IMG/VR virus record: IMGVR_UViG_3300038968_000013
Coordinates: 49,317 to 113,316 of that record
DNA length: 64,000 nt
Strand: one strand, 5' to 3'
From: a virus
Lineage: Duplodnaviria; Heunggongvirae; Uroviricota; Caudoviricetes
Shown here: positions 4,018 to 40,877 of the stretch, piece after piece
Numbering within the stretch: position 1 is the stretch's first letter
How the letters are laid out: each line of letters starts with the position of its first letter
Translations under genes and position numbers: made by a program
The notes under the pieces: generated by a model
Seen by the model: only the letters and a program-made list of their open reading frames with translations
Told to the model about the DNA's origin: nothing
The model's database searches: none

Positions 4018-4047
4018 AGCAACAGTCCTATAGTGTGGGGTTAAGGT

Positions 4048-4913: not shown

Positions 4914-5008
4914 GTTACTTTCCTACCTGTACCTAGATAGAGTATGGTGGGGCAGGATGAACGCTCACGGTATGGTTTACGCCAGAGCCTGCCCCGATGT
5001 TTTGATGC

Positions 5009-6034
5009 TTAGGTGAAGACGAGCGTTAGTTCGCTGTCGTCGTTACCTGTTCCTACCGCTAGATTGTACTGCAGCTGCAGGGTGAGAAGACCAACGTCGT
5101 CTGCCTGCGTGACACTTTGCAGCTGACCCTTAGCAATCATCTGCATGCGCTTTCCAACTCCAGACCCGTGAGTAAAGTTGATGGTCTGGATGAAGCCGGT
5201 GCGAAGGTCATCGTAGAACTGCTGCGCATTAGCCGAGTCACAACCGATCGTGATCTGCAGCGTCGGTGAGCGCCCTACAATCAGCAGACCGTATAGACCG
5301 TCCGCTGAGTTCGCATCCTTATCTTCCTGAACGTCGATACCCGCATCAAGCGAGAACGACTTAAACTTCAGAGATGCCGCTGCAATTGTTCCCACGTTTG
5401 TGGTGATAGTGCAGCCCGAGCTTTCCATTGTTTCGGAAGTGTTACCCGCTGACTGGAAGTGCGCCGAGGTGACATTTTGTGCTGTCGTTACCGTGGGGTT
5501 ACCGTTAATGACACCCGTTAGCGTTGGATCAACCGTAATAACCTGACCCGCCGATCCAGCCATTGTGTACGTACCGAAAACACCCTTTAGCTTGTAAAGA
5601 AGTGCATTCGTGCCAACATCGGAACGCTGAACTTCGACAAGGCCGTCCTCGAAACCAGACGAGCGGAAGGTGTAGGTAAGCGAAGAAGATCCGGCCGATG
5701 CCGACTCAGACATACCGCACATGCGGAGAATGCGGCCAAGACGGAACTTCGGAGACTCGACTGTACCAGGGATCTGCGCCCCGCTGTTTCCGATTCCGAT
5801 AACCACAAGGCCAGGCGTCAGACGATAAAGCTGACGACCAACCGCATCGGAAGTCTTCGACATCGACTGACGAAGCTCCTGCAGGTTTACAAGGTCCGTA
5901 TCAATCTGAACCGGAGTGGTGTTCCGGAACTGATGGATACAGCTTGACATGTTGGGAGAGGTGCCGCCCCCATAGGTTGCCGTGGAGTTTACAGCCACAC
6001 TCATCGCAACGATACGTGATAGATGTGATGCCAT
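5009..6034 (-). CDS. major tail (tube) protein, putative
   Basis: 341-aa ORF immediately upstream of the chaperone pair, Gly/Thr/Ser-rich and beta-type in composition. The call rests on synteny. Confidence 0.6.
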   Translation of the reverse strand: MASHLSRIVAMSVAVNSTATYGGGTSPNMSSCIHQFRNTTPVQIDTDLVNLQELRQSMSKTSDAVGRQLYRLTPGLVVIGIGNSGAQIPGTVESPKFRLGRILRMCGMSESASAGSSSLTYTFRSSGFEDGLVEVQRSDVGTNALLYKLKGVFGTYTMAGSAGQVITVDPTLTGVINGNPTVTTAQNVTSAHFQSAGNTSETMESSGCTITTNVGTIAAASLKFKSFSLDAGIDVQEDKDANSADGLYGLLIVGRSPTLQITIGCDSANAQQFYDDLRTGFIQTINFTHGSGVGKRMQMIAKGQLQSVTQADDVGLLTLQLQYNLAVGTGNDDSELTLVFT

Positions 6035-6047
6035 ATTTCATTCCCCT

Positions 6048-7130
6048 TTACATAACGCCACTGCGTTTCATGTAGTTGGTAAGTGAGTTTGCGACTTGTC
6101 TCCCGGTTGACTCCCACGTCAAGTGTTGGATGGACCGTGATGCGCGCTTCCCCATTTGTAGAGCGCGTCGATAATCGCGCATGATTGATTCCATAGCCTC
6201 AATGGTGTCTGGAATACTTGCCAGCGCACTATTGAGAACTGTCTCTAAACCGTCGATCGTTGCATACCGATTGTTGTACGGCTGCCACGATACATATTTC
6301 ACCGTCTCGCTCGACGTGAAATCTAAGACACCACTGTACTTCGTAACGATGCACGGAAGCCCGGTGGACATTGCCTCGATCAGCGTCAAACCAAATCCTT
6401 CCGCTGCTGTCGGGAAAACGAACCCGTGGCTGCGGTGATAGGTTTCTGCGAGGTCTTTGACGTGCAGCTTCCGGAAATCGAGGACGATGTTATCCTTCCA
6501 AACGACTCCGGGTGAATGCTGCGTATACCCGTCTAGTAGCGCGCGACCAACCGCAGGTTCATAATCAGCGGTGGTCAGCTTGCAGTACAGGTGGCAGTCT
6601 TTCCTGCCGTAGAACTTCTTATTCCAGACAGCCTCGATAACGTCATACCCCTTACGAGCTGACGGGCTGCCAACAATGAGCCACTGGAACGAATCTCCCG
6701 CAGCCCAGGTCCGCTTCTTGTAGGGGAAGTTTTCGTGCTCCACCCCGAGCGGAATGATCTCGATGTCACACCCGACGTGCTTGCGAAAAATGTCGTAGCA
6801 AAACTGCGTCGGGACAATCAGGTGATCCGCGTTCCACAGATACGGTCGGTGCTCCTCTGGGAAATCTGCGGATTCCCACATCGAGAAGAGCACATTCTTC
6901 TTACCGCGAATCGGTCGGAAGTTGCGCGGCGAAGCAACGTGAAAGGCTACCTCGCTGCGCGGGTTGAGGGTGACGCCGTACTTCCGTACCGTAGTCAGCA
7001 GATGGCGGTTTGTCTCACACCATCCAAGATCCCACGTTTGGCCCTCGATATTGCGGTTGGTCCAGTGTACGCCAGGCATTACTGAAACAGCATTCCCAGC
7101 GCATCTTGCAGACGCTTCGTGCGAACCCAC
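6048..7130 (-). CDS. glycosyltransferase, GT-B fold (GT4-like)
   Basis: Motif EGFGLTLIEAMSTGLPCIVT matches the GT4 E-x7-E region. A likely internal start at M18 (7079) abuts the upstream gene with a 1-nt overlap. Confidence 0.8.
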   Translation of the reverse strand: MGSHEASARCAGNAVSVMPGVHWTNRNIEGQTWDLGWCETNRHLLTTVRKYGVTLNPRSEVAFHVASPRNFRPIRGKKNVLFSMWESADFPEEHRPYLWNADHLIVPTQFCYDIFRKHVGCDIEIIPLGVEHENFPYKKRTWAAGDSFQWLIVGSPSARKGYDVIEAVWNKKFYGRKDCHLYCKLTTADYEPAVGRALLDGYTQHSPGVVWKDNIVLDFRKLHVKDLAETYHRSHGFVFPTAAEGFGLTLIEAMSTGLPCIVTKYSGVLDFTSSETVKYVSWQPYNNRYATIDGLETVLNSALASIPDTIEAMESIMRDYRRALQMGKRASRSIQHLTWESTGRQVANSLTNYMKRSGVM

Positions 7131-7813
7131 TTCTCGAAGAACACCTTCGCGTTCTTTGGGTCCAGCACGTTCATGTCACGCGTGCCGCCGAAATTGTGCG
7201 TGACCTTCGCGTCGTACACCATGAGTGGATATTGACCGAACGCCTCAACTTGGCGCAGACAGTAATCCACATCTTCAAACGAGTAGAAGTACTCGGTGCT
7301 CAGTCCCCCGAGCGAGTCCCACGCATCCTTACGGACCAGAACACAGGCAAACGTCACCCACGGGCAGTATAGCGACTTGACCACATTCTCCGGGTCGATT
7401 CCCGCTTGAATGTGTACCGGCATCATATCACTGTGCCGGAAGCCGCAGCCCGCATGAATGAGCTGATTTTTCGTCGTAACGATCTTACAGCCCAAGAGAG
7501 GTAGCGCGCGCTGTTTCCATAGCGCATCAATACAGTCAGGGTCTACGATGACATCATTGTTGACGAGGAGAAGGTGTGACCCTATCGCCCCCCGTGCCCC
7601 GATGTTGTTCCCTTCCGAGAACGACGTATTGTACCCCGGCGTAATGATGGTCCATCCGTATTCACAGGCAATGTCGACCGTTTCTTGGTCGGTGCCATTT
7701 TGAATCAGGATCTTCTCCACAACCGGGAAACGATCCGGGATGGATGCCGCGAGACGTGCAAAGTAATCTGGCCGATCCTTCGACAGGCAGACTACGGTAA
7801 TACCTTCAACCAC
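7079..7813 (-). CDS. glycosyltransferase, GT-A fold (GT2-like)
   Basis: N-terminal VVCLSKDRPDYF is a typical GT2 start. LVNNDVIV provides a DxD-type motif. Confidence 0.7.
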   Translation of the reverse strand: MVEGITVVCLSKDRPDYFARLAASIPDRFPVVEKILIQNGTDQETVDIACEYGWTIITPGYNTSFSEGNNIGARGAIGSHLLLVNNDVIVDPDCIDALWKQRALPLLGCKIVTTKNQLIHAGCGFRHSDMMPVHIQAGIDPENVVKSLYCPWVTFACVLVRKDAWDSLGGLSTEYFYSFEDVDYCLRQVEAFGQYPLMVYDAKVTHNFGGTRDMNVLDPKNAKVFFEKWVRTKRLQDALGMLFQ

Positions 7814-7915
7814 TCCACAACTTCCATGTACCTAGAAAAGAGCCCCGTGTTGGAGTTTCACCACCAGTACGGTCCCTAATCAGGGGACCATACGCAAATG
7901 GCCAGGGCGTAAAAG

Positions 7916-8395
7916 CTAGCTCTTAACGTATGCTTCGCGGGGATTACCCAGCACGGTCGAGAATCGGGCTACGAATTGCACGTAGGCTCCGGGCTGAAAC
8001 TCATCGACCTCTGAAACCGCGACCATCGTTTGGTAGGGGACCAGATCTACTGATGCCCCACCAATGCTCCAAGGTGTGCCGGAAAGAAGAACTTGCTTCA
8101 CATCGGCTGCCATCTCGGCACCAACTTCTGCAGCAGAATAGCATGTTTGGCCACTGATTACAAGGTGTATGTCAAGTTCGGATTGGACCCCATCTACCCA
8201 AGTATTGAGGTTTTCTTCCTCGACGCCGCCCCAAATAAAGATACAGGGCTGAGCCGTCTGGGAATCGAGGGTAGCCTCATTAGGCATCAGCTCGTAGACT
8301 TCCCGGCAGTTAAACGAGTGACCGTTGGCCACCGAGATATTTCGGAGCGCAGCGGCTAGATCCTTGACGATTTGTGTACGAATTGACAGTGCCAT
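7916..8395 (-). CDS. tail terminator / tail completion protein, putative
   Basis: 159-aa ORF between the neck genes and the tail genes. Called by synteny only. Confidence 0.35.
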   Translation of the reverse strand: MALSIRTQIVKDLAAALRNISVANGHSFNCREVYELMPNEATLDSQTAQPCIFIWGGVEEENLNTWVDGVQSELDIHLVISGQTCYSAAEVGAEMAADVKQVLLSGTPWSIGGASVDLVPYQTMVAVSEVDEFQPGAYVQFVARFSTVLGNPREAYVKS

Positions 8396-9081
8396 TACTT
8401 CAAGTTCCCTAGGTCTAGGAGGTCGACTAGACGGGTCGCAATCGCGGGGCCGACATCAGGAACGATCCGGTCCCGAGCCTCCTGCAGGTAGCGGCGCCCA
8501 ACGCCCTTTCCTCCACCAATCTTCACATGGGTTGCCGCAGCAAAGAGCGGAATGACCTTATCCCGCTGTTGCCCACGACCCCGGTCTTCCCCACGGGTGC
8601 GGCGTCGCTTCCCGCGACCCTTAAGGGCCTTGACGCCGTAAAGCACGTCATTCCACCAGAAGGTCCGATCGAATAGCTCGCGAGCCTGGAGTGCGGTGAA
8701 CTTCGGTACCCCAGCTGCCGTCATAGCAGCCTTAAGGGGAATCGTCATGACCTTCGCCTTACGGGGCTCCGCGTCAGCTCCAAACTCCTGCGCACCACCG
8801 TAGATCGGAATCTTGCCATTCTCAGGCTTGAGGATTCCGAGCTTCGCCGTGATCGTGTCGTTATCCTTTTCGACCTTACCCATGATCGAGGCACGCAGCT
8901 TACCGGTGCGTGGGGTAAGGATCTTCCGCGTTAGGTTGTCCTTCGCGTACACTTCCGCCAGCTTCATCGACGCGCGCAGCGTATCTTCGGTCGCCTTGAC
9001 GATCTTCGTATCGATCGTCTTCAGGCGACGAACCAGCGCCTTGAGCGGCTTCAGGTCGACGGCGACCTTCACACTCGCCAT
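8395..9081 (-). CDS. head-tail joining (neck) protein, putative
   Basis: 228-aa ORF downstream of the gp6-like adaptor. It carries an Arg/Lys-rich insert. Called by synteny only. Confidence 0.3.
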   Translation of the reverse strand: MASVKVAVDLKPLKALVRRLKTIDTKIVKATEDTLRASMKLAEVYAKDNLTRKILTPRTGKLRASIMGKVEKDNDTITAKLGILKPENGKIPIYGGAQEFGADAEPRKAKVMTIPLKAAMTAAGVPKFTALQARELFDRTFWWNDVLYGVKALKGRGKRRRTRGEDRGRGQQRDKVIPLFAAATHVKIGGGKGVGRRYLQEARDRIVPDVGPAIATRLVDLLDLGNLK

Positions 9082-9659
9082 TACAGTCGAACCACCGCGT
9101 AGGCAGACAGAATCGAGTTCACTGCCGGAAGAAACTCCAGCGACGTGTAGGACGCAGAACTATTCCCAGTGCCCTGTGACTGCAGCCCCGACTTACTGGC
9201 TAGCTCGATCTCATGCCCCGCCTGTAGGATGCACGCGAACTTGATGTCGTCCGGAATCGGATCAAAGCCACCCACGTAGATTACCTGGACCGTGTTAAAT
9301 CCCTCAAGAAACGCGGTGTAGCGCAGCTTGAGAATTCCCGCCTCGGTGTCAACGCCGTACGACGTGGTGGACATGGCTGCAGCGGTTGAGAAATCACTCG
9401 TTGACGATTCCTTCACAGACGTCACGCTGGCAATCGGAAGTGCATGCAGCTGGAGCACTGACTGCTCTGCTGCTGGTGAGAAGTACTCCGTGTACGTATC
9501 CTTCGTGAACCGACGTCCGATCTTCTTCTCGAAGCGACTCGATACCGACTTGATCGCGAGCTGGTAGAATTCTTCGTCCGCAACATCGACCGTCGCCGCG
9601 CGAATCTTACGGAAGGATGGATGCAGCTTCAGTTCATCTAGTGTGCAAAACTCTGCCAT
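9081..9659 (-). CDS. head-tail connector (gp6-like adaptor) protein
   Basis: N-terminus CTLDELKLHPSFRKI resembles the gp6-like connector family start (..LDE.K.HLRI..). The position in the operon fits. Confidence 0.5.
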   Translation of the reverse strand: MAEFCTLDELKLHPSFRKIRAATVDVADEEFYQLAIKSVSSRFEKKIGRRFTKDTYTEYFSPAAEQSVLQLHALPIASVTSVKESSTSDFSTAAAMSTTSYGVDTEAGILKLRYTAFLEGFNTVQVIYVGGFDPIPDDIKFACILQAGHEIELASKSGLQSQGTGNSSASYTSLEFLPAVNSILSAYAVVRL

Positions 9660-10051
9660 TACGAGGTTACCTTCCGTAGGTTCTCAACGCGGAAACGAAC
9701 TTCGTGGGCGCCCTGCTTCGTTGGAGAGCCGTAGAAGAAATCGAAGCGCGCGATGTGCAGCTCTGTATTAAAACGCTCGTCGATGATTGGGTTGTCCGCT
9801 GACTGCATATTCCACGTCAGTAGCCCCGAGGTTGGATGGATCTCGACGTTGTTTGTGTTCTTGACGTCCTGCTCATTCCGCCCGTTGATGATATTCGCGG
9901 TCAGGGGTGACGGTTCGGGAACATCAGCATTGAACAGTGTCAGCGTAATCGCCGTAAGCGAGGCGAGCGGGATCACTGTCCCCGTCTCATCCTTGAGCGT
10001 GGCGGTATAAATTGCTGCGGTATCCTGTTTGACGCGGAAAGTATTGACCAT
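9659..10051 (-). CDS. hypothetical virion-module protein
   Basis: 130-aa ORF, translationally coupled to its neighbours. Confidence 0.4.
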   Translation of the reverse strand: MVNTFRVKQDTAAIYTATLKDETGTVIPLASLTAITLTLFNADVPEPSPLTANIINGRNEQDVKNTNNVEIHPTSGLLTWNMQSADNPIIDERFNTELHIARFDFFYGSPTKQGAHEVRFRVENLRKVTS

Positions 10052-10054
10052 GGG

Positions 10055-10486
10055 TTACTCTGTCAGTTGGTCGAGGGAGGTCTGAAACACCGTCTGCTTC
10101 TTTGCGGCTTCTTCGTCGGAGAGAGCAGAGCGATACAGATGCTCCGTTGAGCAGGCGGGACACAGGACGGTGTGACGCTCACCATCATATGGCGGCGCCC
10201 CAATTAGCTCTGAAATGTCCTGCCCGCAGTGTGTGCGGAGGTCCATCAGCTTTACGAGGCTGGTGTTCCACGCACCAAGCGTGTCTTCCGTGGGCAGCTC
10301 CGAAGCTCCGAGAATTTCGTTGAGCGCAATCGTCAGCTGCTTCAGCCCATGCCAATCCTGTTCGTCGATAAGGCGATGACGCTTGGCATTGATTGCACGC
10401 ATCCGATCTTCATGGAGACGGCGCGGCCCACGGCAGTAAACCTTGAGGAATCCCCTATTGAATTCCTGTTGCTGTGCATTCGTCAT
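10055..10486 (-). CDS. hypothetical virion-module protein
   Basis: 143-aa ORF in the same operon. Confidence 0.4.
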   Translation of the reverse strand: MTNAQQQEFNRGFLKVYCRGPRRLHEDRMRAINAKRHRLIDEQDWHGLKQLTIALNEILGASELPTEDTLGAWNTSLVKLMDLRTHCGQDISELIGAPPYDGERHTVLCPACSTEHLYRSALSDEEAAKKQTVFQTSLDQLTE

Positions 10487-11301
10487 TAGGTGCTGCTACC
10501 TACAATCTGTAGCGTGAACGTGCTCTTGAGCGCGCCCGTGCTATTCGAAAGCGTCTGCTTGATCCACAGACCTGAGGCTTCTCCCGCCGCGAGAACGCCC
10601 GCTGCTGCCACTTCACCAGACACCGCAGGAATCTGTGTTGCGGCATTCGTGGTGATGAAGGTGACGGAGCTTGGGCTAGACGGCGCCGTGAGACGGTTGG
10701 TTGTGGACTGCGCCGAACCGGTCGCAAATCCCCACTCGATTACGGTGTCCGGATCAGCGGTACACGCGATCGTGGCATTCGTAAGCGAGAGGGTTCCGTG
10801 ATTGTTCTTCGCGTAGATCTTTTCGTAACGATCGACAGGGGAGCCGGTGGGAGTCTGCGAGTCGTAGAACAGCACGCGCACGGCACGCTCACCCGCAGCG
10901 ATAGTCGTGAAATCCGGGGTGTCCCCATCATCCCTTATTGTAATCGTTCCCACCGCGTTGGTGAGTGCGGACCCAGATTGAAGGCGAACCTCCGCAAGTA
11001 GGATGCGCTCAAAGACCTTTGCACCTGTGGTAAAGGTGTTGGCGCTTGCTGAGATGTTGATGTCCTCAGTGTCAATAACACCGGTCGCGAGACGTCCAGT
11101 GATACGAACCTTCTTGTCGCCGTCGCTTGTTCCACTCGATGCCACCTCAACGGCGGTTCCCGTAGAACCAGGGATCTGTCCGGTCGAGAAGACTGGACGA
11201 GTCTTGGTTGTCGTTTCGATAGCGCCACCCGACGTTCCGCTGTCGGACGTCGGCATATTCGCGCTGGTGTAAAGTACTAGATCAGTAGCTGCGATACTCA
11301 T
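10486..11301 (-). CDS. Ser/Thr/Gly-rich beta-type structural protein (decoration or fibre candidate)
   Basis: 271 aa, very S/T/G-rich. The start overlaps the upstream stop codon. Confidence 0.4.
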   Translation of the reverse strand: MSIAATDLVLYTSANMPTSDSGTSGGAIETTTKTRPVFSTGQIPGSTGTAVEVASSGTSDGDKKVRITGRLATGVIDTEDINISASANTFTTGAKVFERILLAEVRLQSGSALTNAVGTITIRDDGDTPDFTTIAAGERAVRVLFYDSQTPTGSPVDRYEKIYAKNNHGTLSLTNATIACTADPDTVIEWGFATGSAQSTTNRLTAPSSPSSVTFITTNAATQIPAVSGEVAAAGVLAAGEASGLWIKQTLSNSTGALKSTFTLQIVGSST

Positions 11302-11313
11302 GTTGTTACTCCG

Positions 11314-12720
11314 TTAGTTCAAGACATCCTCGTCCGTAATGTCTGCGACAGTGACAGATTCGTCTGTGAAAGTTGCCATCTTTAGTTCTTCGGTAGCAGT
11401 AGCTAGCGTCAAAGCTTCCCCACTGATGGTGAGAACCTGTAGTGACTCTAGAACCATCTCCGCTGCACGGACCATCTCGTTTGTGAACTTGATGAACCGA
11501 ATCAGCGAGGGAAGGCCGATAGCCTCAAAAGGGATACCCTTAGAGCTAGCAACCTTTTGTAGGTTCTCGTAGGCTAGCTCGAAGGCTTTGATATTCTTCG
11601 TCAGGTTTTCAAAAGCCACCTGACTATCAGACCGTAGCGTTACTAGAGCTTCGATCTGAACGGCGCGAGACGCCGAGATAAGGCCCCCGCGTGCTTCGTA
11701 CGGAACCTCTGACGTCGATTGCACACCCGTCACGTTTTCAACGGGTACAATAAGGGAGGATGTACGGCTCCCGAGATTTTCTAGCGCGACATCGATCCCG
11801 TGCTGGATCTTAGAGACCGCCTCTAGGGCTGCCTGGCGAGACGCCTGGAGTCCTACCAGCGCCTCATACGCTCCGACCACACTTACCGCCGAAGTCTTAA
11901 GTGCCTCAAATTCTACCACAAATTGCACCGAAAGCATAGAAGATGTTGCTTCAAATGCTACCGGAACGCCCCGTGCTAGCCCGCTAAGGTTTTCCCAATG
12001 CGCCTGGACCGTAGCCTGGAGGGCTATGATGTTCTCGATCGTGGCGTCATGGGTAGAAACGACCTTCGCCAGCGCCTCGTAGGACGTGGCAAGATCCTTG
12101 GCAATTTGCTTCTTTGCCTCAAAGCTTACTGCCGAGCTGTTCATGGTGCCTGCGACCGCCTCCAGAAGAGGGGTCTGGGTGACCAGAATCCCGACAAGCG
12201 CCTCGAAGCTAATGTCCTGTGCCCGCGCCAGGGTGACCAGCGACTCAAAGCTTACCGTGCTTGGCTGGACCGCCCGGAGCAGGGCTTCAAATTGGTTCAC
12301 CCGGCTGGCCGCGAGCCCAACCACGTCCTCGTACGACGGGGTTAGACTCGTAGCCAGTGAGACCAGGGCTTCAAGAACGGCAGGTTGATTTGCCGCAACC
12401 GTATTCGTAGCTTCGTAGGAAACCTGCAGCGCCTTCGCCAGGCCGACGATATCCTCGTGTGAAACATCACTAGAGAGCGAGACTTTAACCAGGGCTTCGT
12501 AAACAGCCTGGAGCCCAAACGCGAGCGAGGTCAGGTTCTCAATACCTACCGTACTGCTGGCTACTTGCCCAACCAGTACCTCATACGCGATCGGAGAGAC
12601 GGTCGAGATCCCGACGATGTTCTCGTAGGCGACGCTGCGGGTCTGTTCTAGCTTGACGATGTTTTCGAAGACAGTCTGAACTTCGGTACCAACGTCGTTG
12701 TCATCAATCAGTAGTAGCAT
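11314..12720 (-). CDS. tandem 14-residue-repeat protein (x-S/A-Y/F-E-A/N-L/I core), function unknown
   Basis: About 30 consecutive repeats are visible in the translation (VAYENI, IAYEVL, AVYEAL, VSYEAT, PSYEDV, NQFEAL, VSFESL, ISFEAL...). Confidence 0.6.
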   Translation of the reverse strand: MLLLIDDNDVGTEVQTVFENIVKLEQTRSVAYENIVGISTVSPIAYEVLVGQVASSTVGIENLTSLAFGLQAVYEALVKVSLSSDVSHEDIVGLAKALQVSYEATNTVAANQPAVLEALVSLATSLTPSYEDVVGLAASRVNQFEALLRAVQPSTVSFESLVTLARAQDISFEALVGILVTQTPLLEAVAGTMNSSAVSFEAKKQIAKDLATSYEALAKVVSTHDATIENIIALQATVQAHWENLSGLARGVPVAFEATSSMLSVQFVVEFEALKTSAVSVVGAYEALVGLQASRQAALEAVSKIQHGIDVALENLGSRTSSLIVPVENVTGVQSTSEVPYEARGGLISASRAVQIEALVTLRSDSQVAFENLTKNIKAFELAYENLQKVASSKGIPFEAIGLPSLIRFIKFTNEMVRAAEMVLESLQVLTISGEALTLATATEELKMATFTDESVTVADITDEDVLN

Positions 12721-15700
12721 TAGTCAAAGTCACAAAAGTAGTAACCACACTGCTTATCCTGCGAGCATGGGAGTCCAATCTTACTATCTGCACCAGCTGA
12801 GCAAGCATAACAATCGGCTGCCGTAGAGCAGGCACGTCCCTTTAGAAAGCCACTCTGGCAGGTAGTGCTACAGGTCGGCGCAGTGTTGCAGACACCATCT
12901 GTCTTCTTCCCCAGGTTCCCAGCGAAATCCACATTTGCAGCACAGGCGCTAAGGAGATCACAGTAGGCGCTTGACCCCTCCTGAGTATAATGGACCTTAT
13001 CAGCCAAGTATGGGTGCGAGGCGTCCTTCGTAAGGATTGAAGCGCCACCCTTGTCAATGAAGTACTGGAACGAATCGACAAAATTTCCACCTGTCGCGAT
13101 TTGCTCGGCTACTAGCCAAGATCGCCAGGAAATGACATCTTGAGTTCCTTCAAACCACCCAGTCTGCTTCCCGTTTTCTACGCCCGAATTAGTCGGAGCT
13201 GAGGTCACCCAAACGTTCTCAACCACCTTACAGACTCCGCTATCGCATTGTCCACCGGAGCTACATGTTTGGCCATTCTGTGTCCCACCGCGACAGCGCA
13301 TCGTTGCCTTATCGTCAATTGATCGCTTGCCCCGAATCATACGCGCAAGGGTATTAGACGTTGCACAGATACCGCTACAGCCAACTGCTCCCGTGGCTGG
13401 GGTACACCCGCTGTAGGAGTCCGCATGAGTAGCCGCTGACGCGGTTGCGACTACGCTGGACCGTGCTGTTACGCAGACGTTAGAGCTACATGTCGTTGTA
13501 GTGATAGTGCCACAGGTACCACTTGGGCAGTCTGCTGGCTTTGTGCAGGAGAGCCCATTGTTTGCGCCGCCGGAGCACGTCGAGGGAAATGGGCCCGCAC
13601 CACCGAGGTGGCACTCTGAGCTTGAAGAGCAGGAGCAGGGCCCAGAGATGTTTGCTAACCCGAATGAGGTTGAGTTCTTAGCCATAGCGCAGAACGCCAC
13701 AAACGGGTAATCCTCTGAGTCCCAATTTGACGTCTCGGGACAGGAGCACTCTTTTCCCTGGTCGGTGCCGTACCCGCCAGCAGCTGTCCACGACTCACAG
13801 AACCCATTCTTTAAGATTCCCCCGTAGGACGAATTATTATAGGGAGCCGCCGTCGCAACCGGGTGAACCGTGTTGTTAGCGATCTGAATGAACGCTACAT
13901 CAATGGCTAGTCCACCTGTTCCAGTAATTGGAATGGTTGTGATCTTGTTTCCGGTTCCACTTTGCCCAGCCGCAAGCGTGTAGAAATCGCGATCGATGTC
14001 TCCCATGGAAGCACCGCCACGGGCCTGATCGTAGATAGCCGAAGCCTCAATCATGCTCGCCGCGCATGCAACCTTAACAGTAGATTGATCGGTTCGCGAA
14101 TCACCCATTAGGCCAACTCGCTTGTCACCCGGCAGCACATCGGAGGGGATCGGCGTGGGGCTTTGACTTACAACCTCTAGGTCCGCAAAAGTAATACGCG
14201 CCTGGTCCCCATTTTTGTGAAAAACGGTCTTATGAACCTCACCGATATAGTCATCAATCCCAGCATAGCTAATAGTGCTATTGTCGGGGTTTGTATTGAT
14301 GAGAAAAGGCACCGGGAAGTACAGCGTATCGCCAGTTCCGTCGTCTGGAACAAAGTTGTTCAGATCAAAGGATGTGCCAGTCTTAACGTTCGGCGTTCCG
14401 GCGATATCGCGGAGGCTGAGTTGCACGCCAGCCCCTAGGGTGTCGCTCCCCTCTGTGTCTTGCGCCGCAACATTAAAGACCGCAGCAAGCGGCGTAAAGC
14501 TACGGCTCGTTGGCTCCTGGAATTCAACCTCGCGGAGCCAGTCGGCATCATCGACACTAGTGTTTTCTGAAATACGAGTGGTGTTTCCATCCGGCTCGTT
14601 CGCAACGGTTCCGTTTCCGGTTAGACACTTATACTCATTGCCAGCCCCAGAGCACCCAGTCCCGACCCATCCTAGGTCCGCTCCGTTAGCGTCTACCCAC
14701 AGGGATTCAGAGACCCAGTTTGTTGATGGCGAGCTGCCTGTTTGCACAATCAGATTGTCACCAAAAACGCGCGAACGCTCTCCACTGTCATCCGGCCCAA
14801 AGAGCACACGATCCGGGGAAACAAGGCTGGTGTATGGACTTGTGAGGCCAGTTGTCGTACAGGATGCGTTAACGCATGACCCAGCAAGAGAGCAGTTGTT
14901 GCTATTGCAGTCCCCGTTTACAGTACAAGTCGCACCAGCGTTTGTGCCGCCAACGCAAGCCTTCATGAGGTTGTAAGTAGGCCACGTTGTGTTACACTCA
15001 CAGTCGGTATTCGTCGCGCAGGCTAGGTTCAGCGTTCCTCCGTTTGCCAGGCGGGAACGAATAGAGTCTCCCCCTGTGCATTTCCCCACCCGTTGAGTTC
15101 CAAGTCCGCGCTGATAAACGACGGGTAGATTGCTTGTGCATACGCCTCCGGTCCCGCAGTCTGCGTTGACGTTGCATACTGACCCGCTAGGGGCCGTTCC
15201 GGCAGTGCAGAGCTTGCCAAACTCGCCGCTATAGAACTTACAGGTTACTTCACCGGTTCCGTTTACCTGCTCAACTGCCATTACGTTTTGGCTGTTTTGC
15301 GCACGGGAAATTAGACCAAAGTAAGAGGGGGAGCACTTCGCCTCATTTGGGCGAAGCTCATCGCATTCGTTAATGCAGTGACAATCGCTTCCGTCGCAAC
15401 TAAGGGTTTCGTTTTCATCGCGAACGCACGCCGTTGGGTTGCTTCCCATTGAAAGGTAATCGGGACGGCCAGGTAGGCAATCCGCGACTGTAGTACAGGA
15501 TTGCCCGCATACGGTATCCACCATTTCAACCGACTGCTGGCATCGACCAACGACCTCCTGCGCATTCCCGTAAAGTACGGCAAAGTGCTCAAGGGGCTGA
15601 GAGCAAGCACCAGAGATAGTATTTAGACCCTGGTCTGTGCATGTCTGCCAATGATAAAGCGAACACCCCTTTTCGGTGCTTGTGGCAAGGGAGATAAGGG

Positions 15701-16157
15701 GACGACGCTGTGGCTTGCAGTACCCGCTTCCGCAGTTTGCTGCCGAGTTGCATGGGGAACCATTACGGGTCGGACCAACGCAAATGGGCATAGCCCCCAG
15801 CATAGGGAGCGTGTACATTCCGGCTAGGAGTTGCGTGTAAGTCGACCCGAGAAGCACGGTGCCGTTAGAATTGACTCCATCCGCGCTGCTACTGTCAAAG
15901 TCAATCAACATGCGGTTATTCACAGCCGACGTAAACAATGTTGTGTTGAGACTTGGCCAGTACGGATTAGTACTAGCAGAAATCGCGACGCTGTTAGAGC
16001 GATATCGCGGCGCTGTCCCTCCGACCCCACCTGTAAAGACCGAGGTCTTAACCGGCGTGTCGTTTGTTGCAACGTCCGATCCGGCAAAGAACTGAGTTGT
16101 TGCAGCTTGCGCAGGCGAAGCAAACAGTAAGAAGAAGTAGAGAATGATCCAATACAT
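12720..16157 (-). CDS. 1145-aa secreted Cys-rich protein
   Basis: Classic Sec signal peptide MYWIILYFFLLFASPAQA|AT. Many CxxGxC / CxSGxC-type Cys pairs (CGSGYC, CGTGGVC, CNSNNC, CDSGVC, CPSGTC). The start overlaps the upstream stop codon. Confidence 0.65.
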   Translation of the reverse strand: MYWIILYFFLLFASPAQAATTQFFAGSDVATNDTPVKTSVFTGGVGGTAPRYRSNSVAISASTNPYWPSLNTTLFTSAVNNRMLIDFDSSSADGVNSNGTVLLGSTYTQLLAGMYTLPMLGAMPICVGPTRNGSPCNSAANCGSGYCKPQRRPLISLATSTEKGCSLYHWQTCTDQGLNTISGACSQPLEHFAVLYGNAQEVVGRCQQSVEMVDTVCGQSCTTVADCLPGRPDYLSMGSNPTACVRDENETLSCDGSDCHCINECDELRPNEAKCSPSYFGLISRAQNSQNVMAVEQVNGTGEVTCKFYSGEFGKLCTAGTAPSGSVCNVNADCGTGGVCTSNLPVVYQRGLGTQRVGKCTGGDSIRSRLANGGTLNLACATNTDCECNTTWPTYNLMKACVGGTNAGATCTVNGDCNSNNCSLAGSCVNASCTTTGLTSPYTSLVSPDRVLFGPDDSGERSRVFGDNLIVQTGSSPSTNWVSESLWVDANGADLGWVGTGCSGAGNEYKCLTGNGTVANEPDGNTTRISENTSVDDADWLREVEFQEPTSRSFTPLAAVFNVAAQDTEGSDTLGAGVQLSLRDIAGTPNVKTGTSFDLNNFVPDDGTGDTLYFPVPFLINTNPDNSTISYAGIDDYIGEVHKTVFHKNGDQARITFADLEVVSQSPTPIPSDVLPGDKRVGLMGDSRTDQSTVKVACAASMIEASAIYDQARGGASMGDIDRDFYTLAAGQSGTGNKITTIPITGTGGLAIDVAFIQIANNTVHPVATAAPYNNSSYGGILKNGFCESWTAAGGYGTDQGKECSCPETSNWDSEDYPFVAFCAMAKNSTSFGLANISGPCSCSSSSECHLGGAGPFPSTCSGGANNGLSCTKPADCPSGTCGTITTTTCSSNVCVTARSSVVATASAATHADSYSGCTPATGAVGCSGICATSNTLARMIRGKRSIDDKATMRCRGGTQNGQTCSSGGQCDSGVCKVVENVWVTSAPTNSGVENGKQTGWFEGTQDVISWRSWLVAEQIATGGNFVDSFQYFIDKGGASILTKDASHPYLADKVHYTQEGSSAYCDLLSACAANVDFAGNLGKKTDGVCNTAPTCSTTCQSGFLKGRACSTAADCYACSAGADSKIGLPCSQDKQCGYYFCDFD

Positions 16158-17479
16158 TACATCACCGGAATAAAGTAAGTTGCGTTAGCTGACCCAGCAT
16201 TCGACCACGCGCACTGCACCCAAACGTCCGCAATATCCATCGCAGCTCCACTTGCAGAGGCGCTTTTATACCCACCAACCTCTAGGCCGTTAAGGTAATT
16301 AAGCCGCGTTGAAACCCCTGATCCGAACCCAGTGATGATGATGTTAAAGGTACTGTAGGTCTCGGCAGAGAGCGTAACTTGGGTATCGACAGGCGTCGGA
16401 GTCGCAGCTGGCGCCGTTGGACTTGGTGCAGGAATCGCAATATAGCGAAGCTGGTAAGTTCGATTCGTACCAGTAGTGCGTCCCGCCCTGGCTTGATAGC
16501 GGCACCCGTGAATAAAATCGACACCAGCTGCCGAAGCTGGAATTGCCGGGGTTGGCGTACCTGAGTCCCACGCCGCGAGACCCATGGTCTGTCCTGTGGT
16601 GTCGTCGCCTGCGTTTGACTGCGCATAGTTGTTGTCTGAGGTAGTCCCATCGTGATTCGCTGCCCAGACGTAGGACGCTGGCGAAGATTCCCATACCGCC
16701 CAAATGTTCGACGATCCGGTTCCGTTGTTAACCTTAGTAGAGGCTGGCCAGTTGTTGTACGTCCCGTTCGAGTCACCTTTTCGAATATTTACGTAGGTGT
16801 TCGGCGTCGGCATATCTCCGGTTCCGATGTAGAGGTCGTCAAACTTTTGATACTGGAAGTGATTACCAGAAACCGTTAGCGCAGCCGAGAGGGTAAGGGC
16901 ATCGATGTTCGTAATAGTACGACCAGTGTGAGTAGACCCAAGCTGGGACCACGTACCACCGGACTCTTGGTACCATTTTGTAGAGCCTGATCCGCTTCCC
17001 GTTACCACCTCAATTAAGAAGGGCACCCAGGTATTCGTTGGAAGGGCGTAAGTGTTTCCTGACTGCGCCCCATTTGTTTCTAGCGTTAGCGTGTAATCGG
17101 TTGTGCCGTTGGGGCAACTAAACTTTAGCTTGATGTCTCCCCAATCGGCAATCGCGCCGGTTGGGGTATTCGTGCAAGTTGTAAACGGGGTAACTTGAAT
17201 GCGGAAAAACAGGTAAACCGTTCCCGTAGCCCCAAGCCCTGTAACAACAGAACAAGTCCCGGATGTCCCAGACGACTTCTCCATGAGCACAAAGTAGTCA
17301 CCTGAAGCGGCCGACCCGCTATTGATCTTGGTCTGGGATAGTCCGGTATTACAGGCAAGGCCCTTTTCCCCCTGCTCAAAGCCTTCAGCCCAGAGCATCC
17401 CTGCTTGTACGTTCCCGCACAGAGTTAAAACAAAAAGAACTGCGGCAATTAGTCCGCGTCGACAGTGTAGGAAAAGCAA
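16157..17479 (-). CDS. 440-aa secreted protein
   Basis: Signal peptide ...AAVLFVLTLCGNVQA|GM. The body is Thr/Gly/Ser-rich. Confidence 0.55.
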   Translation of the reverse strand: MLFLHCRRGLIAAVLFVLTLCGNVQAGMLWAEGFEQGEKGLACNTGLSQTKINSGSAASGDYFVLMEKSSGTSGTCSVVTGLGATGTVYLFFRIQVTPFTTCTNTPTGAIADWGDIKLKFSCPNGTTDYTLTLETNGAQSGNTYALPTNTWVPFLIEVVTGSGSGSTKWYQESGGTWSQLGSTHTGRTITNIDALTLSAALTVSGNHFQYQKFDDLYIGTGDMPTPNTYVNIRKGDSNGTYNNWPASTKVNNGTGSSNIWAVWESSPASYVWAANHDGTTSDNNYAQSNAGDDTTGQTMGLAAWDSGTPTPAIPASAAGVDFIHGCRYQARAGRTTGTNRTYQLRYIAIPAPSPTAPAATPTPVDTQVTLSAETYSTFNIIITGFGSGVSTRLNYLNGLEVGGYKSASASGAAMDIADVWVQCAWSNAGSANATYFIPVM

Positions 17480-18942
17480 ATGTTGATCCGTTTCGCGTTA
17501 GAACCTGACACGTAGTCCAGGTCGATTTCATCACCAACGGCCACCTTACCCTCCGCTGCTTGGATAGTGGTCGTACACGCCCCACCTGTTGAGGTAGAGC
17601 AAGCAAGATCGCTTGTCGCAATATCGGCGGGAGAGCCGTCATCGCGTTGAATGTTGATTGTAGCTGCCGCTGAAGCCTCGCTACTAATCTCGCAACACAG
17701 CTGCGTGATTGTAATCGCACGAGCCTTATTCATCCAGATGGATGGAATATCGAGAGTGGCTGGATTAAGGGCCGAGGTTTCGTTGAAGATTGTAAAACAC
17801 GCCTGCTGCGTCTTCATGGCCACAGAGGCATAAGTGCTGTCGATGTCAACGCATGTCGGAGCTGCGTTGTCCGTAAGTGTTTGGGCAACTGTTCCAGCGC
17901 CACAGGCCCCCGCACCCGCCGCCGCTACGGATGAGGTTGCGAAGGTGGTCCCCGTCCCGCGTAAATAGCGACCGGAGGTTGCAGTGTTGTTGGCACCAGT
18001 GCCACCGTACGATTCGTCTAGTGGGGTGGAAATCTTGAGGCCCGTGAGGATACTTACCTCTTGGCCATCAAACTCAAGGTCGTTAAGCGTAGAGTCGTAT
18101 TCAATCGACATCTGTTGAGTTGTACCGAAGTACTTCTTAACGTCGTTCAGCATCCAAGTAGCGGGCATATTTCCGGTAGCAATTGGATCTGTAACCCGCA
18201 GTAGATTGGCCCCAGCGGAAACAGTCAGAACCCCTCCGGTTGCCGAACCAGAGAAATCCCCCGTGGTGAATTCGATTTTTTCTACCCGGTCGCCTGGAGA
18301 TACAACACCAATAGAGGCCCGGATGCTTGGAATTCGCCAACCGTAAGTAGAGCTTCCAAGGTACGAGCAGTAAAAGAAGCTCTGCCCATCCGTAGTAAGA
18401 TCATTGTCGATGCAGACGCGCCCAACCTCATCCGCAGCATCACAGTTGGCGGAAGAACAGGAGGTTGCATTTGGGAGTTCGACTTGCGCTGCGCCAAAGT
18501 CCTGCACCGTTGCCCCGTAGGTGTTAGCCTCATCCTCATAGCAAATCGCCGAGGGGAGCTTAGATCGTGTTGTGATGCCACTCGCATCAATGTCTGCATC
18601 CGCAACGGTCCCATTTGCAATCTCTGCGGTTCCAACAGCACCCGTTGCGATCTCTGTCGCGGTTACACCATCGGCCTTGATGCTGATAGCACCACTCGAC
18701 GCTGAGAAGTTGTTTGTGTTGAATGACGCGGCGCCCTTCTGAGAGGTCGAGGCATCGGGGATCGAGATGCTACACTGCCCTCCGCTAACACTTCCGGTCA
18801 GCGGAGGCGTGATGCTCGTTTCGAAGCAGGTATCGTACGCTCCACCGTAACTAATCGATGGAGGCGGATAACTGATCTGCGCCCACCCTGGCGTTGCGAG
18901 TAGGAGAACGAAAAGAATGACCAGGAGGTAACGCTTTACCAT
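17449..18942 (-). CDS. 497-aa secreted protein with fibre-like GTAEIANGTVADADI repeats
   Basis: Signal peptide MVKRYLLVILFVLLLATPGWA|Q. Contains the phage-fibre-like repeat IKADGVTATEIATGAVGTAEIANGTVADADI. Confidence 0.55.
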   Translation of the reverse strand: MVKRYLLVILFVLLLATPGWAQISYPPPSISYGGAYDTCFETSITPPLTGSVSGGQCSISIPDASTSQKGAASFNTNNFSASSGAISIKADGVTATEIATGAVGTAEIANGTVADADIDASGITTRSKLPSAICYEDEANTYGATVQDFGAAQVELPNATSCSSANCDAADEVGRVCIDNDLTTDGQSFFYCSYLGSSTYGWRIPSIRASIGVVSPGDRVEKIEFTTGDFSGSATGGVLTVSAGANLLRVTDPIATGNMPATWMLNDVKKYFGTTQQMSIEYDSTLNDLEFDGQEVSILTGLKISTPLDESYGGTGANNTATSGRYLRGTGTTFATSSVAAAGAGACGAGTVAQTLTDNAAPTCVDIDSTYASVAMKTQQACFTIFNETSALNPATLDIPSIWMNKARAITITQLCCEISSEASAAATINIQRDDGSPADIATSDLACSTSTGGACTTTIQAAEGKVAVGDEIDLDYVSGSNAKRINICFSYTVDAD

Positions 18943-19358
18943 TTTTGCACCCGGAGGGTCTTGTTGTTGGTTGTAGCTACACAGTAAACGTTCCCAGTAA
19001 AAATACCTGGACCATTCTGCTGATAGGAACCATTGTTTGGAATAGGAATCCCGTTGGTTGAGGCAACCGAGGAGTGGAATCCCATGTAGATTGTCGCGCC
19101 GGAATTGTTGTAGATGAGCCAGCCCACCTTCGAACCAGCCGCGACTACGATCTCAGGCGTATTGGCGGTATCAAGGGTTAGCTCGACGGGAGCTGTTTGT
19201 GTGGCGCCCGCCGTAACATTGCCGCCGTCTGGATCATCGAGAGAAACGCGCTGCACATAGCGAGTAACGGGCCCAGGGTCCGACACCTGATATGTCGCAA
19301 CGTTGTGGGTCGTCCCGGCTGTTGCGGTCCCCTTAACTACACTCGCCTTTGTTGCCAT
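18936..19358 (-). CDS. hypothetical small beta-rich protein (decoration candidate)
   Basis: 140 aa, Thr/Gly/Asn-rich, sited between the GT4 gene and the secreted-protein genes. Confidence 0.45.
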   Translation of the reverse strand: MATKASVVKGTATAGTTHNVATYQVSDPGPVTRYVQRVSLDDPDGGNVTAGATQTAPVELTLDTANTPEIVVAAGSKVGWLIYNNSGATIYMGFHSSVASTNGIPIPNNGSYQQNGPGIFTGNVYCVATTNNKTLRVQKW

Positions 19359-19361
19359 ACG

Positions 19362-20351
19362 TTACAGATCCTTAATGATATCAATGATACCTTGCGCGGA
19401 TCGTTCCCACGTAAACGCTTGAAGGTCTTGGTGAGCACGCTTTCCGACGATGAGCGAGTTGTCGTAATCGTGCATCACCGCTGCCATCTGCCTTGCGAGG
19501 CCCGGAAGATCCACGATCGCAAACTCGTACTTGCCTGTTGGGTTCGTAACTGCGGGGCCACCCATTGACGCTTCGATCCGCTCTAGCTTGTGCGGAGCAA
19601 AGAAGCAGTTACGGCGATTCGCAAACTCCAGCATCCCAGAGTACTCAGTGGTAATCGTGGGAAGCCCAGAGGACATCGCCTCGGCAACGGTCAAACCCCA
19701 GCCTTCGCCCATGGTCGGCATCACGAAACAGTGCGCCGAATGATACAGCTCGATCATTTCCTCGCGTGTAACATTTCGCCCATCCGTGATGGTGTTGCCA
19801 CGCTTGAAAACGTTCTGAAGATCTGGGTTGTGCGAGGTAGTTTTGATGTACAGTTCAACGAAGGGAATCTCTTTGAAGAAGTGATCCCAGACCACTCCTA
19901 GATTCCACCACCCCTTACGAGCATTAAAGGCGCCCACCCACAAGAAACGAAACTTCTCGTTCTGATCTTGTGAAATCGAGCGCCTTACGTAGGGGACATG
20001 ATCTGTCCCGAGAGGCACCACCTCCACGCGCTTCCCCGTCCACTTACGAAAGTATCGCTGGCAGAACTTGGAAGGCACGATGATAAGGTCGGCCTTGCGC
20101 ACCCGATCAAGCACATCTTGCGTGCAATCGGGTGTTTCGTACATCGTGATCAGAACATTAAACTTGCCTTGAAAGTGCTCAAACGCGTGCGGAGCACAGT
20201 AGGAAATATGAATGGGGCTGCGCCCGGAGATCTGAACCCCAAGCTTTTGAAACGCGGACTTCGTTCGAAAGATCGCGTTGTGATACCCGTAGTAGTTCCC
20301 GCCAGGAAGGTACTCGCCTTCCTTCGTGAACCACGAAACACTGACTGCCAC
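19362..20351 (-). CDS. glycosyltransferase, GT-B fold (GT4-like), paralog of 6048..7130
   Basis: EGWGLTVAEAMSSGLPTITT motif. Overall collinear with the 6048..7130 protein. Confidence 0.8.
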   Translation of the reverse strand: MAVSVSWFTKEGEYLPGGNYYGYHNAIFRTKSAFQKLGVQISGRSPIHISYCAPHAFEHFQGKFNVLITMYETPDCTQDVLDRVRKADLIIVPSKFCQRYFRKWTGKRVEVVPLGTDHVPYVRRSISQDQNEKFRFLWVGAFNARKGWWNLGVVWDHFFKEIPFVELYIKTTSHNPDLQNVFKRGNTITDGRNVTREEMIELYHSAHCFVMPTMGEGWGLTVAEAMSSGLPTITTEYSGMLEFANRRNCFFAPHKLERIEASMGGPAVTNPTGKYEFAIVDLPGLARQMAAVMHDYDNSLIVGKRAHQDLQAFTWERSAQGIIDIIKDL

Positions 20352-20382
20352 TCACTGAAGCCTGATCGTACCCAGATTAGGT

Positions 20383-20622
20383 TTAGCGACGGTTTTGACG
20401 CGTCATCATGCGGTGGTTCGGAGGAAAATCATCAGCCGCTGTCCCTGCCTTTGGAGGCGGTGGCGGTGCTGGCTCTTCACTCTCGAAAACTTCGAGCCGA
20501 ACGACTAGCTGTCGAATCCGCAGCTCTTCAGCTAGTGGGACCACGAAAATCGATCCCTTGGGATGCCAGACGCCATCGGCTGTCGCGACCGGCAGGATTG
20601 CTTGAACTTTGCTTAGTTTCAT
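20383..20622 (-). CDS. hypothetical small Pro-rich protein
   Basis: Track ORF 20383..20646, with the likely start at the internal MKLSKV. Confidence 0.3.
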   Translation of the reverse strand: MKLSKVQAILPVATADGVWHPKGSIFVVPLAEELRIRQLVVRLEVFESEEPAPPPPPKAGTAADDFPPNHRMMTRQNRR

Positions 20623-20694
20623 AACACAACAACGGGGGAAGAGCAAGAAATTCCCACTCTTCCCCCGCTTCCTGTTTTGATTCCCTACGACGGA

Positions 20695-22020: not shown

Positions 22021-22107
22021 TGCTGTATTTCCTAGTTGTTGTCTATGGCTGGTAGTTAACCAGCGAGTAAGAGTTTCTTGGTTCTTTGCCTACAAAAGAA
22101 CTGGGAG

Positions 22108-33775: not shown

Positions 33776-33818
33776 TTACGCCGGTAGTTTCTCACAGAAC
33801 CCATTGAAAGTCAAGGAA

Positions 33819-40599: not shown

Positions 40600-40798
40600 G
40601 CGTATTGGTACAGAAATAACGTACTACACGATGTGCGATCGATGCTACGCGGTATTCGCGTTGTCCTTGCTGTAGCACTCGTAGCAGCGCACCGGGTACC
40701 CACACCAACGGTGTGTCAGTGTTCCACACCGACAGCATCGTTTACGGCGGTACCCATAGCGACAGTCTTCGCAGGTTGCTGGATTGTGTTTCATAGAG

Positions 40799-40872: not shown

Positions 40873-40877
40873 GTGAG

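Follow-up and report, generated by a model that had tools for sequence, protein, structure and literature searches.

Why would a phage carry glycosyltransferase genes beside the genes for its capsid and tail tube? The question is raised by a 64,000-nt stretch of a caudovirus genome (IMG/VR record IMGVR_UViG_3300038968_000013, positions 49,317 to 113,316; hereafter the window, all coordinates being those of the window), in which a sequence-only reading had noticed three glycosyltransferase (GT) genes, two paralogous GT4 genes and one GT2 gene, inside the virion structural operon, and had connected them with the glycosylation of capsid and tail-tube subunits. The three genes proved to be real, and they are encoded co-directionally on the minus strand. 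The window is 100% identical to scaffold_4 of ENA ERZ23500300 (65 kb, from a wastewater-type metagenome). Since this scaffold reaches approximately 28 kb past the left end of the window, the phage genome is at least 92 kb long; the best explanation of the window is that it represents the late region of such a genome, from an uncultured siphovirus. The reading that we favour, with a probability of roughly 0.55, is that this virion operon encodes its own cytoplasmic protein-glycosylation machinery, acting on virion proteins. The features on which the argument turns are the three GT genes, the genes of the major capsid protein (MCP) and the major tail protein (MTP), and the interval behind the MCP gene, which holds a hairpin and a small open reading frame (ORF):

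19362-20351, minus strand, GT4-A, soluble GT-B enzyme of the CAZy GT4 type, 329 aa, EX7E motif EGWGLTVAE (Pfam, PHROG, AlphaFold2)
6048-7079, minus strand, GT4-B, paralogue of GT4-A, 343 aa, EX7E motif EGFGLTLIE (Pfam, PHROG, BLASTP)
7079-7813, minus strand, GT2, soluble enzyme of the GT-A fold, 244 aa, Asp87 (NND) and Asp183 (FEDVD) (PF00535 and orthologue profile)
5009-6034, minus strand, MTP, double-domain tube protein resembling pb6 and the P74-26 tube protein, 341 aa (BLASTP, AlphaFold2 with Foldseek, synteny)
20695-22020, minus strand, MCP of the HK97 fold family, 441 aa, ending in ...NTGSWSVAKTYS (PF05065, 4e-41; phrog_10, 8e-44)
20631-20669, minus strand, terminator-like or attenuator hairpin, 18-bp stem with 9 G-C pairs, 26 nt past the MCP stop
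20383-20622, minus strand, conserved small ORF, 79 aa, from the ATG at 20622 (70% identity and the same slot in the related contigs L007 and L008)

GT4-A matched Glyco_trans_1_4 (1.3e-13), Glycos_transf_1 (4e-12) and phrog_2170 (3e-27), and GT4-B matched Glycos_transf_1 (4e-11) and phrog_2170 (3e-23); the Pfam GT4 scores were 51.9/46.3 bits for GT4-A and 42.3/43.1 bits for GT4-B, against cut-offs of 27 and 26.4. The two proteins are 32% identical over 319 residues (BLASTP, E-value 1e-51). The AlphaFold2 model of GT4-A (pLDDT 93.6) has the GT-B fold with its two Rossmann domains, and Foldseek aligned it with GT4 structures at E-values of about 1e-12; the top match by TM-score (0.74) was B736L of the chlorovirus NY-2A, with MshA, SenB, SdgB and GtfA close behind. 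From its 32% identity to the modelled paralogue, GT4-B is predicted to share the GT-B fold. In an alignment of 56 family members that included both paralogues, E216, E224, R145, K146 and K170 were invariant, and GT4-A and GT4-B keep all 12 invariant residues of the family, the EX7E pair among them. Their CAZy GT4-type membership predicts that both are retaining enzymes using a nucleotide-sugar donor.

The GT2 protein taken alone scored marginally against PF00535 (24.1 bits; cut-off 23.3). When its orthologues were combined into a profile and compared with the PDB, the matches were chondroitin synthase (3.9e-27), GmaR (4e-14) and ppGalNAc-T (7e-12), and also SunS and many other GT2 and GT27 structures; GmaR, ppGalNAc-T and SunS are enzymes that glycosylate proteins. 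D87 (in LLVNND), D183 (in FEDVD) and H206 are invariant in a nine-sequence alignment of the GT2 family; by analogy, D87 and D183 would provide the DXD-type metal/nucleotide motif and the catalytic Asp. As far as can be judged from these residues, the GTs look catalytically competent. Transmembrane segments were found neither in the GTs nor in nearby proteins, and this region of the window contains no flippase and no GT-C enzyme.

The GT genes are woven into the late operon, which has the usual order of late genes according to Pfam and PHROG searches of the window ORFs. From about 34.8 kb down to coordinate 1, every large ORF is encoded on the minus strand. The other head and head-to-tail genes are as follows:

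25969-27441, minus strand, large terminase (Pfam and PHROG searches)
23660-25957, minus strand, portal-MuF fusion (Pfam and PHROG searches)
22108-23397, minus strand, S78 protease/scaffold (Pfam and PHROG searches)
9081-9659, minus strand, head-closure or head-tail adaptor protein, 192 aa (phrog_442, 4e-23; PF24163 HCP in the public record)
8395-9081, minus strand, Neck1 or HK97 gp10-like tail-completion protein, 228 aa (phrog_5, 3.5e-6; weak match to PF04883)
7916-8395, minus strand, 159-aa protein in the tail-terminator slot (synteny only; its own match is phrog_5185)

In the related contig L009, the slot of the 159-aa gene is taken by a PF23818 protein (Phage_tail_terminator_7). The most likely start codon of GT4-B is the ATG at 7079, which gives a 343-aa protein in accordance with the public gene call and overlaps the GT2 stop codon as TAATG; a start at 7130 was replaced by this ATG in view of the overlap and the public call. 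Only 13 nt, with an AGGGGA ribosome-binding site, separate GT4-B from the ATG of the MTP gene, so that the GT2-GT4-B pair stands directly upstream of the MTP gene (7079-7813 and 6048-7079, followed by 5009-6034), as the sequence-only reading had it. The gap between the end of GT4-A and the next gene is 3 nt. The common strand, the minimal gaps and the translational coupling suggest that the GTs are co-expressed with the virion proteins.

The identification of the MTP, which had been called from the sequence alone, was borne out by PF18906 homology, by the fold of the protein and by the genes that follow it:

4048-4913, minus strand, two ORFs resembling tail-assembly chaperones, 153 aa (4452-4913) and 150 aa (4048-4500) (position, acidic C-terminus)
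1-4017, minus strand, 5' part of the tape measure gene, a single open frame without stops that runs off the left end

The MTP has no direct Pfam match. Its homologues at 31-45% identity carry PF18906 (Phage_tube_2), and BLASTP E-values to proteins of this family were 2e-24 and 6e-18. Comparison of its profile with PDB sequences gave no match; fold comparison succeeded instead, the AlphaFold2 model (pTM 0.77) being matched by Foldseek to the P74-26 tube (8ed0; E-value 2e-9, TM-score 0.60) and the T5 pb6 tube (9e-9). The order of terminator, MTP, chaperones and tape measure is thus present, the terminator being placed by synteny. The chaperone-like ORFs match no family; their overlap of 49 nt is what a programmed frameshift (G/GT-type) would lead one to expect. 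In the public record of the full scaffold the tape measure protein has 2133 aa, and therefore implies a very long tail. A tail module ending at 4048 was refuted by the frame scan, which revealed the open tape-measure frame. The tape measure gene is followed on scaffold_4 by genes for a protein of 274 aa and a Laminin_G_3 protein of 1465 aa. Family alignments of the MTP show variable loops rich in Ser, Thr, Pro and Gly at residues ~95-112 and 178-222. The MTP is the candidate acceptor of GT2 and GT4-B. A single Cys (residue 106, in LRMCG or LEACG) is invariant in 18/18 and 26/26 aligned homologues, which is unusual for a tube protein.

The candidate acceptor of GT4-A is the MCP. GT4-A had been described as the next gene downstream of the MCP gene; it is indeed nearby and on the same strand, but the hairpin and the 79-aa ORF intervene. 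The hairpin is the strongest terminator-like site across 4000-23500. The 79-aa protein matches no family, and its gene is uncalled in the ENA record. The same slot is occupied in L025, L033, L035, L038, L046 and L047 by small zinc-ribbon proteins of the CxxC...CxxC type.

Are these positions peculiar to one phage? In L007, whose MCP is 82% and whose GT2 is 71% identical to those of the window, the layout is the same. The order terminator-GT2-GT4-MTP is found in L007, L159, L160 and L161, and is still kept in the last three, where the MTP is 44-46% identical. A marine phage from Tara Oceans has MCP, a small ORF and a GT4 gene in succession, and further on another GT4 gene directly before an MTP of the Phage_tube_2 family; in a phage with a Mu-like head, a GT2-GT4 fusion lies just before the gene of an unrelated presumed MTP, which is assigned by position only. 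An alignment-based scan found the GT4 family in at least 529 IMG/VR contigs, in most of them between capsid and head-closure genes; single-protein scans of IMG/VR had given no match, and the relatives came only from the alignment-based scan. The locus census comprised the 80 best loci. A GT4 gene was called in 75 of them, and in 69 of these 75 the MCP gene was upstream or a head-closure or tube gene was downstream on the same strand. In an independent sample, anchored on the MCP with a typical MCP of the family as query, GT4 lay between MCP and head-closure genes in every one of the 32 determinable loci whose MCP reached 39% identity or more; at 29-38% identity, nine loci had GT4 and 14 did not. 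The placement recurs in many unrelated contigs and is therefore not due to chance, and since both positions are conserved in divergent phages, they provide strong guilt-by-association for glycosylation of virion proteins.

An exhaustive profile search of a library of 1.84 billion proteins returned 6539 cluster representatives of the GT4 family at E≤1e-30. GTDB contains full-length relatives, most of them on short contigs, in metagenome-assembled genomes (MAGs) labelled Planctomycetota, Binataceae, Deltaproteobacteria, Acidobacteriota, Spirochaetaceae, Verrucomicrobiota and others; the host labels of the relatives are those of MAG bins only. In the relatives, the interval between MCP and head-closure genes also contains methyltransferases, radical-SAM enzymes, GT2s and a cupin-cytidylyltransferase, and so behaves as a glycan-tailoring island. 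Among cultured phages, megablast against 50,697 phage records revealed no isolate close to positions 5000-23400 of the window, tblastn with the MCP gave no match of at least 27% identity to isolate phages, and megablast and tblastn of the phage records found the GT layout of the window in no isolate.

Three observations made on these relatives stand apart. The top-scoring members of the GT4 family in the protein library (P0147-P0176 and others) are giant proteins of 1000-5000 aa, in which 2-6 GT4 domains in tandem are combined with a GT2 domain and TPR repeats. L009, a 125-kb phage contig, carries an IS605 OrfB/TnpB (Cas12f-like) gene at 12189-13274 on the minus strand, between its head-closure and tail-terminator genes. 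The same contig encodes a 1058-aa B12-binding radical-SAM protein directly after the capsid gene.

How does the locus compare with systems in which virions are known to be glycosylated? To our knowledge, virion glycosylation of phages has been shown experimentally in a few mycobacteriophages only, and Freeman et al. (2023, Cell Host Microbe 31:1216) reportedly judged the evidence beyond mycobacteriophages to be slight. The window contains further sugar-related genes, a second cassette upstream of the terminase gene, which has to be included in the comparison:

28988-29776, minus strand, GT9-like protein (PF01075)
29767-30393, minus strand, 208-aa protein of unknown function (gene call)
30393-31004, minus strand, Methyltransf_24 protein (PF13578, 3.5e-16)
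30979-31773, minus strand, GT9-like protein (PF01075)
31760-32425, minus strand, 221-aa protein of unknown function (gene call)
32772-33386, minus strand, sugar N-acetyltransferase of the NeuD/PglB/VioB type (Hexapep; TIGR03570, 1.2e-26, below cut-off)

The two GT9-like genes matched PF01075 at 4.8e-13 and 1.3e-7, so that the count of three GTs, each of them genuine, falls short by two. L007 has a GT2 gene and a DegT/DnrJ/EryC1 aminotransferase gene in the same place.

Three reports describe mycobacteriophages that glycosylate capsid and tail-tube subunits at their C-termini, and cluster O phages with an O-methyltransferase followed by GTs (PMC11600133, PMC12619734, PMC4351075); in two of these sources, which cite Freeman et al., the enzymes responsible are phage-encoded GTs and an O-methyltransferase (PMC11600133, PMC12619734). 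One report places the Corndog GTs inside the structural operon (PMC4351075). We read the sequences of the proteins concerned. Corndog gp35-38, in the interval between portal and protease genes, comprise a TylF/Methyltransf_24 protein, one protein without assignment, and then proteins of the GT2-like and GT25 types; Che8 gp108-110, which immediately precede the terminase gene at the right end of the genome, consist of a fusion of GT2 and TylF, followed again by a GT2-like and a GT25 protein. The window resembles both phages in having soluble phage-encoded GTs in or beside the structural genes, and in that the proposed targets, capsid and tail tube, are the two most abundant surface proteins; as the GTs of Che8 precede its terminase gene, so does the second cassette of the window. 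The Methyltransf_24 protein (30393-31004), a candidate companion methyltransferase, shares its Pfam family with Corndog gp35 and the C-terminal domain of Che8 gp108, with no pairwise similarity and no TylF match. The differences are that Che8 and Corndog have GT2, GT25 and TylF-type enzymes and no GT4, whereas the GTs of the window are two GT4, one GT2 and two GT9-like enzymes, and that the GTs of the window abut the genes of their candidate substrates. The sequence-only reading had called the placement one of the kind reported for glycosylating phages; this agrees with Corndog as far as a position in the structural operon is concerned, but in Che8 and Corndog no GT gene adjoins the MCP or MTP gene.

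Several results weigh against glycosylation of virion proteins, at least of the kind known from mycobacteriophages. BLASTP detected no similarity between the GTs of the window and the Che8 or Corndog enzymes, tblastn with GT4-A found no mycobacteriophage match, and the BLASTP result together with the differing Pfam families ruled out orthology to Che8 gp108-110 or Corndog gp36-38. It had been proposed to compare the C-terminal tails of MCP and MTP with those of glycosylated phages, and this comparison turned out negative. The acceptor proteins end in ..NKTGS and ..YSDGS in Che8 and in ..PLVGS and ..IKGDS in Corndog, all four with ..G/D-S, whereas the MTP of the window ends in ..DDSELTLVFT, a family-conserved β-strand without a C-terminal extension. 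The MCP ends in ..AKTYS and that of its nearest relative in ..AKTY, so the terminal Ser is not conserved. Thus, the window lacks two defining features of the mycobacteriophage systems, enzyme orthology and C-terminal acceptor tails. Among GT4-linked MCPs, 31 of 58 end in Ser, many of them with ..LTAAS, but HK97-type MCPs from phages without GTs share the ..LT..AA strand, and in the MCP-anchored sample the frequency of terminal Ser in GT4-positive (16/31) and GT4-negative (3/13) relatives did not differ significantly. For these two reasons a C-terminal Ser motif was dropped as evidence of glycosylation. The GT4 proteins encoded before MTP genes grouped only loosely in a neighbour-joining tree, and because their bootstrap values were no higher than 9-14 of 100, the tree does not clearly separate them from the post-MCP enzymes and does not show a specialisation for their substrate. 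Finally, a homologous GT4 gene in cultured Streptomyces and Rhodococcus phages adjoins ribonucleotide reductase and lysin genes rather than capsid or tube genes, and the best matches in NCBIfam, all of them sub-cut-off, are GTs of polysaccharides, lipids or small molecules.

The lack of obvious acceptor tails in MTP and MCP is what would be expected if the GTs modified other virion proteins, either tail fibres or the products of the genes that separate GT4-A from the head-closure gene, which may include head fibres or decoration proteins:

9659-19358, minus strand, eight unannotated genes for proteins of 140, 497, 440, 1145, 468, 271, 143 and 130 aa (composition)

Neither Pfam nor PHROG assigned a function to any of the eight proteins, and the 1145-aa and 271-aa proteins had no match among PDB sequences. 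The block, 9.7 kb long, begins right after GT4-A, its products contain 17-27% Ser+Thr (at least 18% in six of the eight; 27% in the 271-aa protein; the 143-aa protein has 13%), and its equivalents are conserved, together with the GT2-GT4 pair, in L007 and L159-L161. Most phages with GT4 lack the block, though, their GT4 gene being followed directly by the head-closure gene, and the adjacency of GT and MTP genes is likewise found without it. Moreover, the 497-, 440- and 1145-aa proteins have signal-peptide-like N-termini, with which modification and assembly in the cytoplasm would fit poorly. We therefore regard a role confined to fibres or decoration proteins, sparing the shell and the tube, as unlikely. 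Apart from this question, the 1145-aa protein has 66 Cys, arranged in repeated CxxxxxCxSGxC-like motifs, as well as a GDS(R)T motif that recalls SGNH esterases, and the 468-aa protein has repeats of ~20 residues (..YEALV..).

The database matches of the GTs may be taken to indicate that these enzymes remodel an envelope glycan of the host, such as lipopolysaccharide (LPS) core or O-antigen, exopolysaccharide or teichoic acid, for instance to block superinfection or to release progeny from debris. GT9 is classically an LPS family, the GT9-like proteins of the second cassette resemble LPS heptosyltransferases, the GT4s weakly match NCBIfam models for exopolysaccharide, LPS and teichuronic-acid GTs, and PHROGs files the GT4 family under 'moron, auxiliary metabolic gene and host takeover'. 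All of these model matches, including those of the cassette to heptosyltransferase models, are nevertheless far below the curated cut-offs. The phage systems that modify O-antigens, GtrABC of Shigella and Salmonella phages, also use phage-encoded GTs, one of them a GT2. They comprise a membrane flippase, a bactoprenol GT with transmembrane helices and a GT-C enzyme, lie beside the integrase gene and are expressed from the prophage. The GTs of the window, on the contrary, are all soluble, no membrane GT, flippase, polymerase or transmembrane segment was found in the region, and the genes are translationally coupled within a late operon, unlike a lysogenic-conversion cassette. The position next to MCP or MTP genes is kept across many putative host phyla, according to MAG-bin labels, whose envelopes differ. 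Remodelling of the envelope thus appears to us quite improbable.

The neighbourhood of the homologous GT4 in the Streptomyces and Rhodococcus phages, which includes ThyX as well as ribonucleotide reductase, would suit yet another activity, the glycosylation of modified bases in phage DNA to evade restriction, in the manner of the α- and β-GTs of T4. Pyle et al. are said to have described in 2024 phage enzymes that glycosylate modified DNA bases. GT-B enzymes of phages are known to act on hydroxymethylated bases (PMC12619734). Among the ORFs of the window that were scanned, no hydroxymethylase or other base-modification gene was detected, at least 28 kb of the genome being outside the window. 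The GT genes of the window are late genes within the head and tail modules, and 69 of 75 GT4 loci are tied to capsid, head-closure or tube genes. We consider modification of DNA to be highly improbable.

Precedents for the favoured reading, in which the acceptors are virion proteins and the reaction is cytoplasmic, can be found outside the mycobacteriophages. In chloroviruses, the major capsid protein is glycosylated by enzymes that the virus itself encodes (PMC7826918, PMC5408694). B736L of NY-2A (PDB 3oy2; compare A111/114R of PBCV-1) is, like GT4-A, a virus-encoded cytoplasmic GT-B enzyme, and besides being the best structural match of GT4-A it was the second-best match of its sequence profile (1.2e-16). 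Chloroviruses differ from the window phage in being giant viruses of eukaryotes with a double-jelly-roll capsid and atypical N-glycans, the sequence identity is ~14%, and gene placement is not comparable. Similarly, GtfA, SdgB, GmaR and SunS, which are bacterial, soluble and of the GT-B or GT-A fold, act in the cytoplasm on Ser/Thr (SunS: Cys) of folded or repeat proteins. As structural or profile matches they rank no higher than small-molecule or polysaccharide GT4s such as MshA, glycogen synthase and SenB, and their accessory domains and partners are absent from the window.

What could such a machinery do? GT4-A and the capsid may share a late transcript, on which GT4-A lies downstream of the attenuating hairpin; the hairpin would lower expression of the enzyme relative to that of the capsid. 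GT4-A would then move a sugar from a host nucleotide-sugar onto hydroxyl groups of the capsid shell or of a head-associated protein, while the coupled GT2 and GT4-B could build a short glycan on the tail-tube subunit. If MCP and MTP are the targets, the modified sites must therefore differ from the C-terminal ones of mycobacteriophages; in the MTP, the variable Ser/Thr/Pro-rich surface loops would be the most likely sites, rather than a C-terminal tail. The second cassette (28988-33386) might supply or tailor further sugars, with N-acetylation and methylation. All sugars would be added in the cytoplasm, before or during assembly, and the glycan coat of the resulting particle may protect it against proteases or predators, against non-productive adsorption or against defence proteins. 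In our opinion, glycosylation of virion proteins is plausible, and comparative genomics has strengthened it considerably.

A wider proposition, to which we give somewhat less than an even chance, is that a large and mostly uncultured radiation of siphoviruses, whose members are binned with Planctomycetota, Desulfobacterota/Binatia, Acidobacteriota, Spirochaetota and Verrucomicrobiota, has GT4 as a near-core gene at the head-to-tail junction and glycosylates capsid and tube at internal surface sites with enzymes unrelated to those of mycobacteriophages. If this were true, virion glycosylation would have evolved independently in environmental phages and be common among them, rather than a curiosity of actinophages. 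Should GT4, GT2 and GT9 cassettes in structural modules indeed decorate capsids and tail tubes, phages with a sugar coat would abound in water, soil and wastewater, with consequences for the stability, grazing and adsorption of the particles, for their recognition by host defences and immune systems, for the engineering of glycan-shielded therapeutic phages and for the interpretation of viral metaproteomes, in which modified peptides are missed. The layout, with enzymes adjacent to their candidate substrates, offers directly testable enzyme-substrate pairs for cytoplasmic glyco-engineering, namely GT4-A with the MCP and GT2 plus GT4-B with the MTP.

The host of the window phage is probably not an actinobacterium. 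The remaining observations concern other parts of the window. The portal protein (765 aa) has a C-terminal Mu F-like head-morphogenesis domain, joined via a linker rich in Lys, Asp and Glu. An Rfam scan of the window at the gathering threshold found three tRNAs and nothing else. One of them, tRNA-Leu (59328-59411, minus strand), lies ~1.7 kb from a gene for a Ro60/TROVE and vWA protein (61161-62777, minus strand); no Y-RNA-like gene was found in the window by the same scan. The other two are adjacent genes for tRNA-Asp and tRNA-Gly (40798-40951, minus strand), which, with a gene for a Thg1-like tRNA-His guanylyltransferase (43223-43954, minus strand), look like a phage set for tRNA repair or maintenance. 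Genes resembling Endonuclease VII and HNH/His-Me homing endonucleases, for example at 33392-34349 (minus strand) and 52242-52748 (plus strand), flank the second sugar cassette and occur elsewhere in the window as well.

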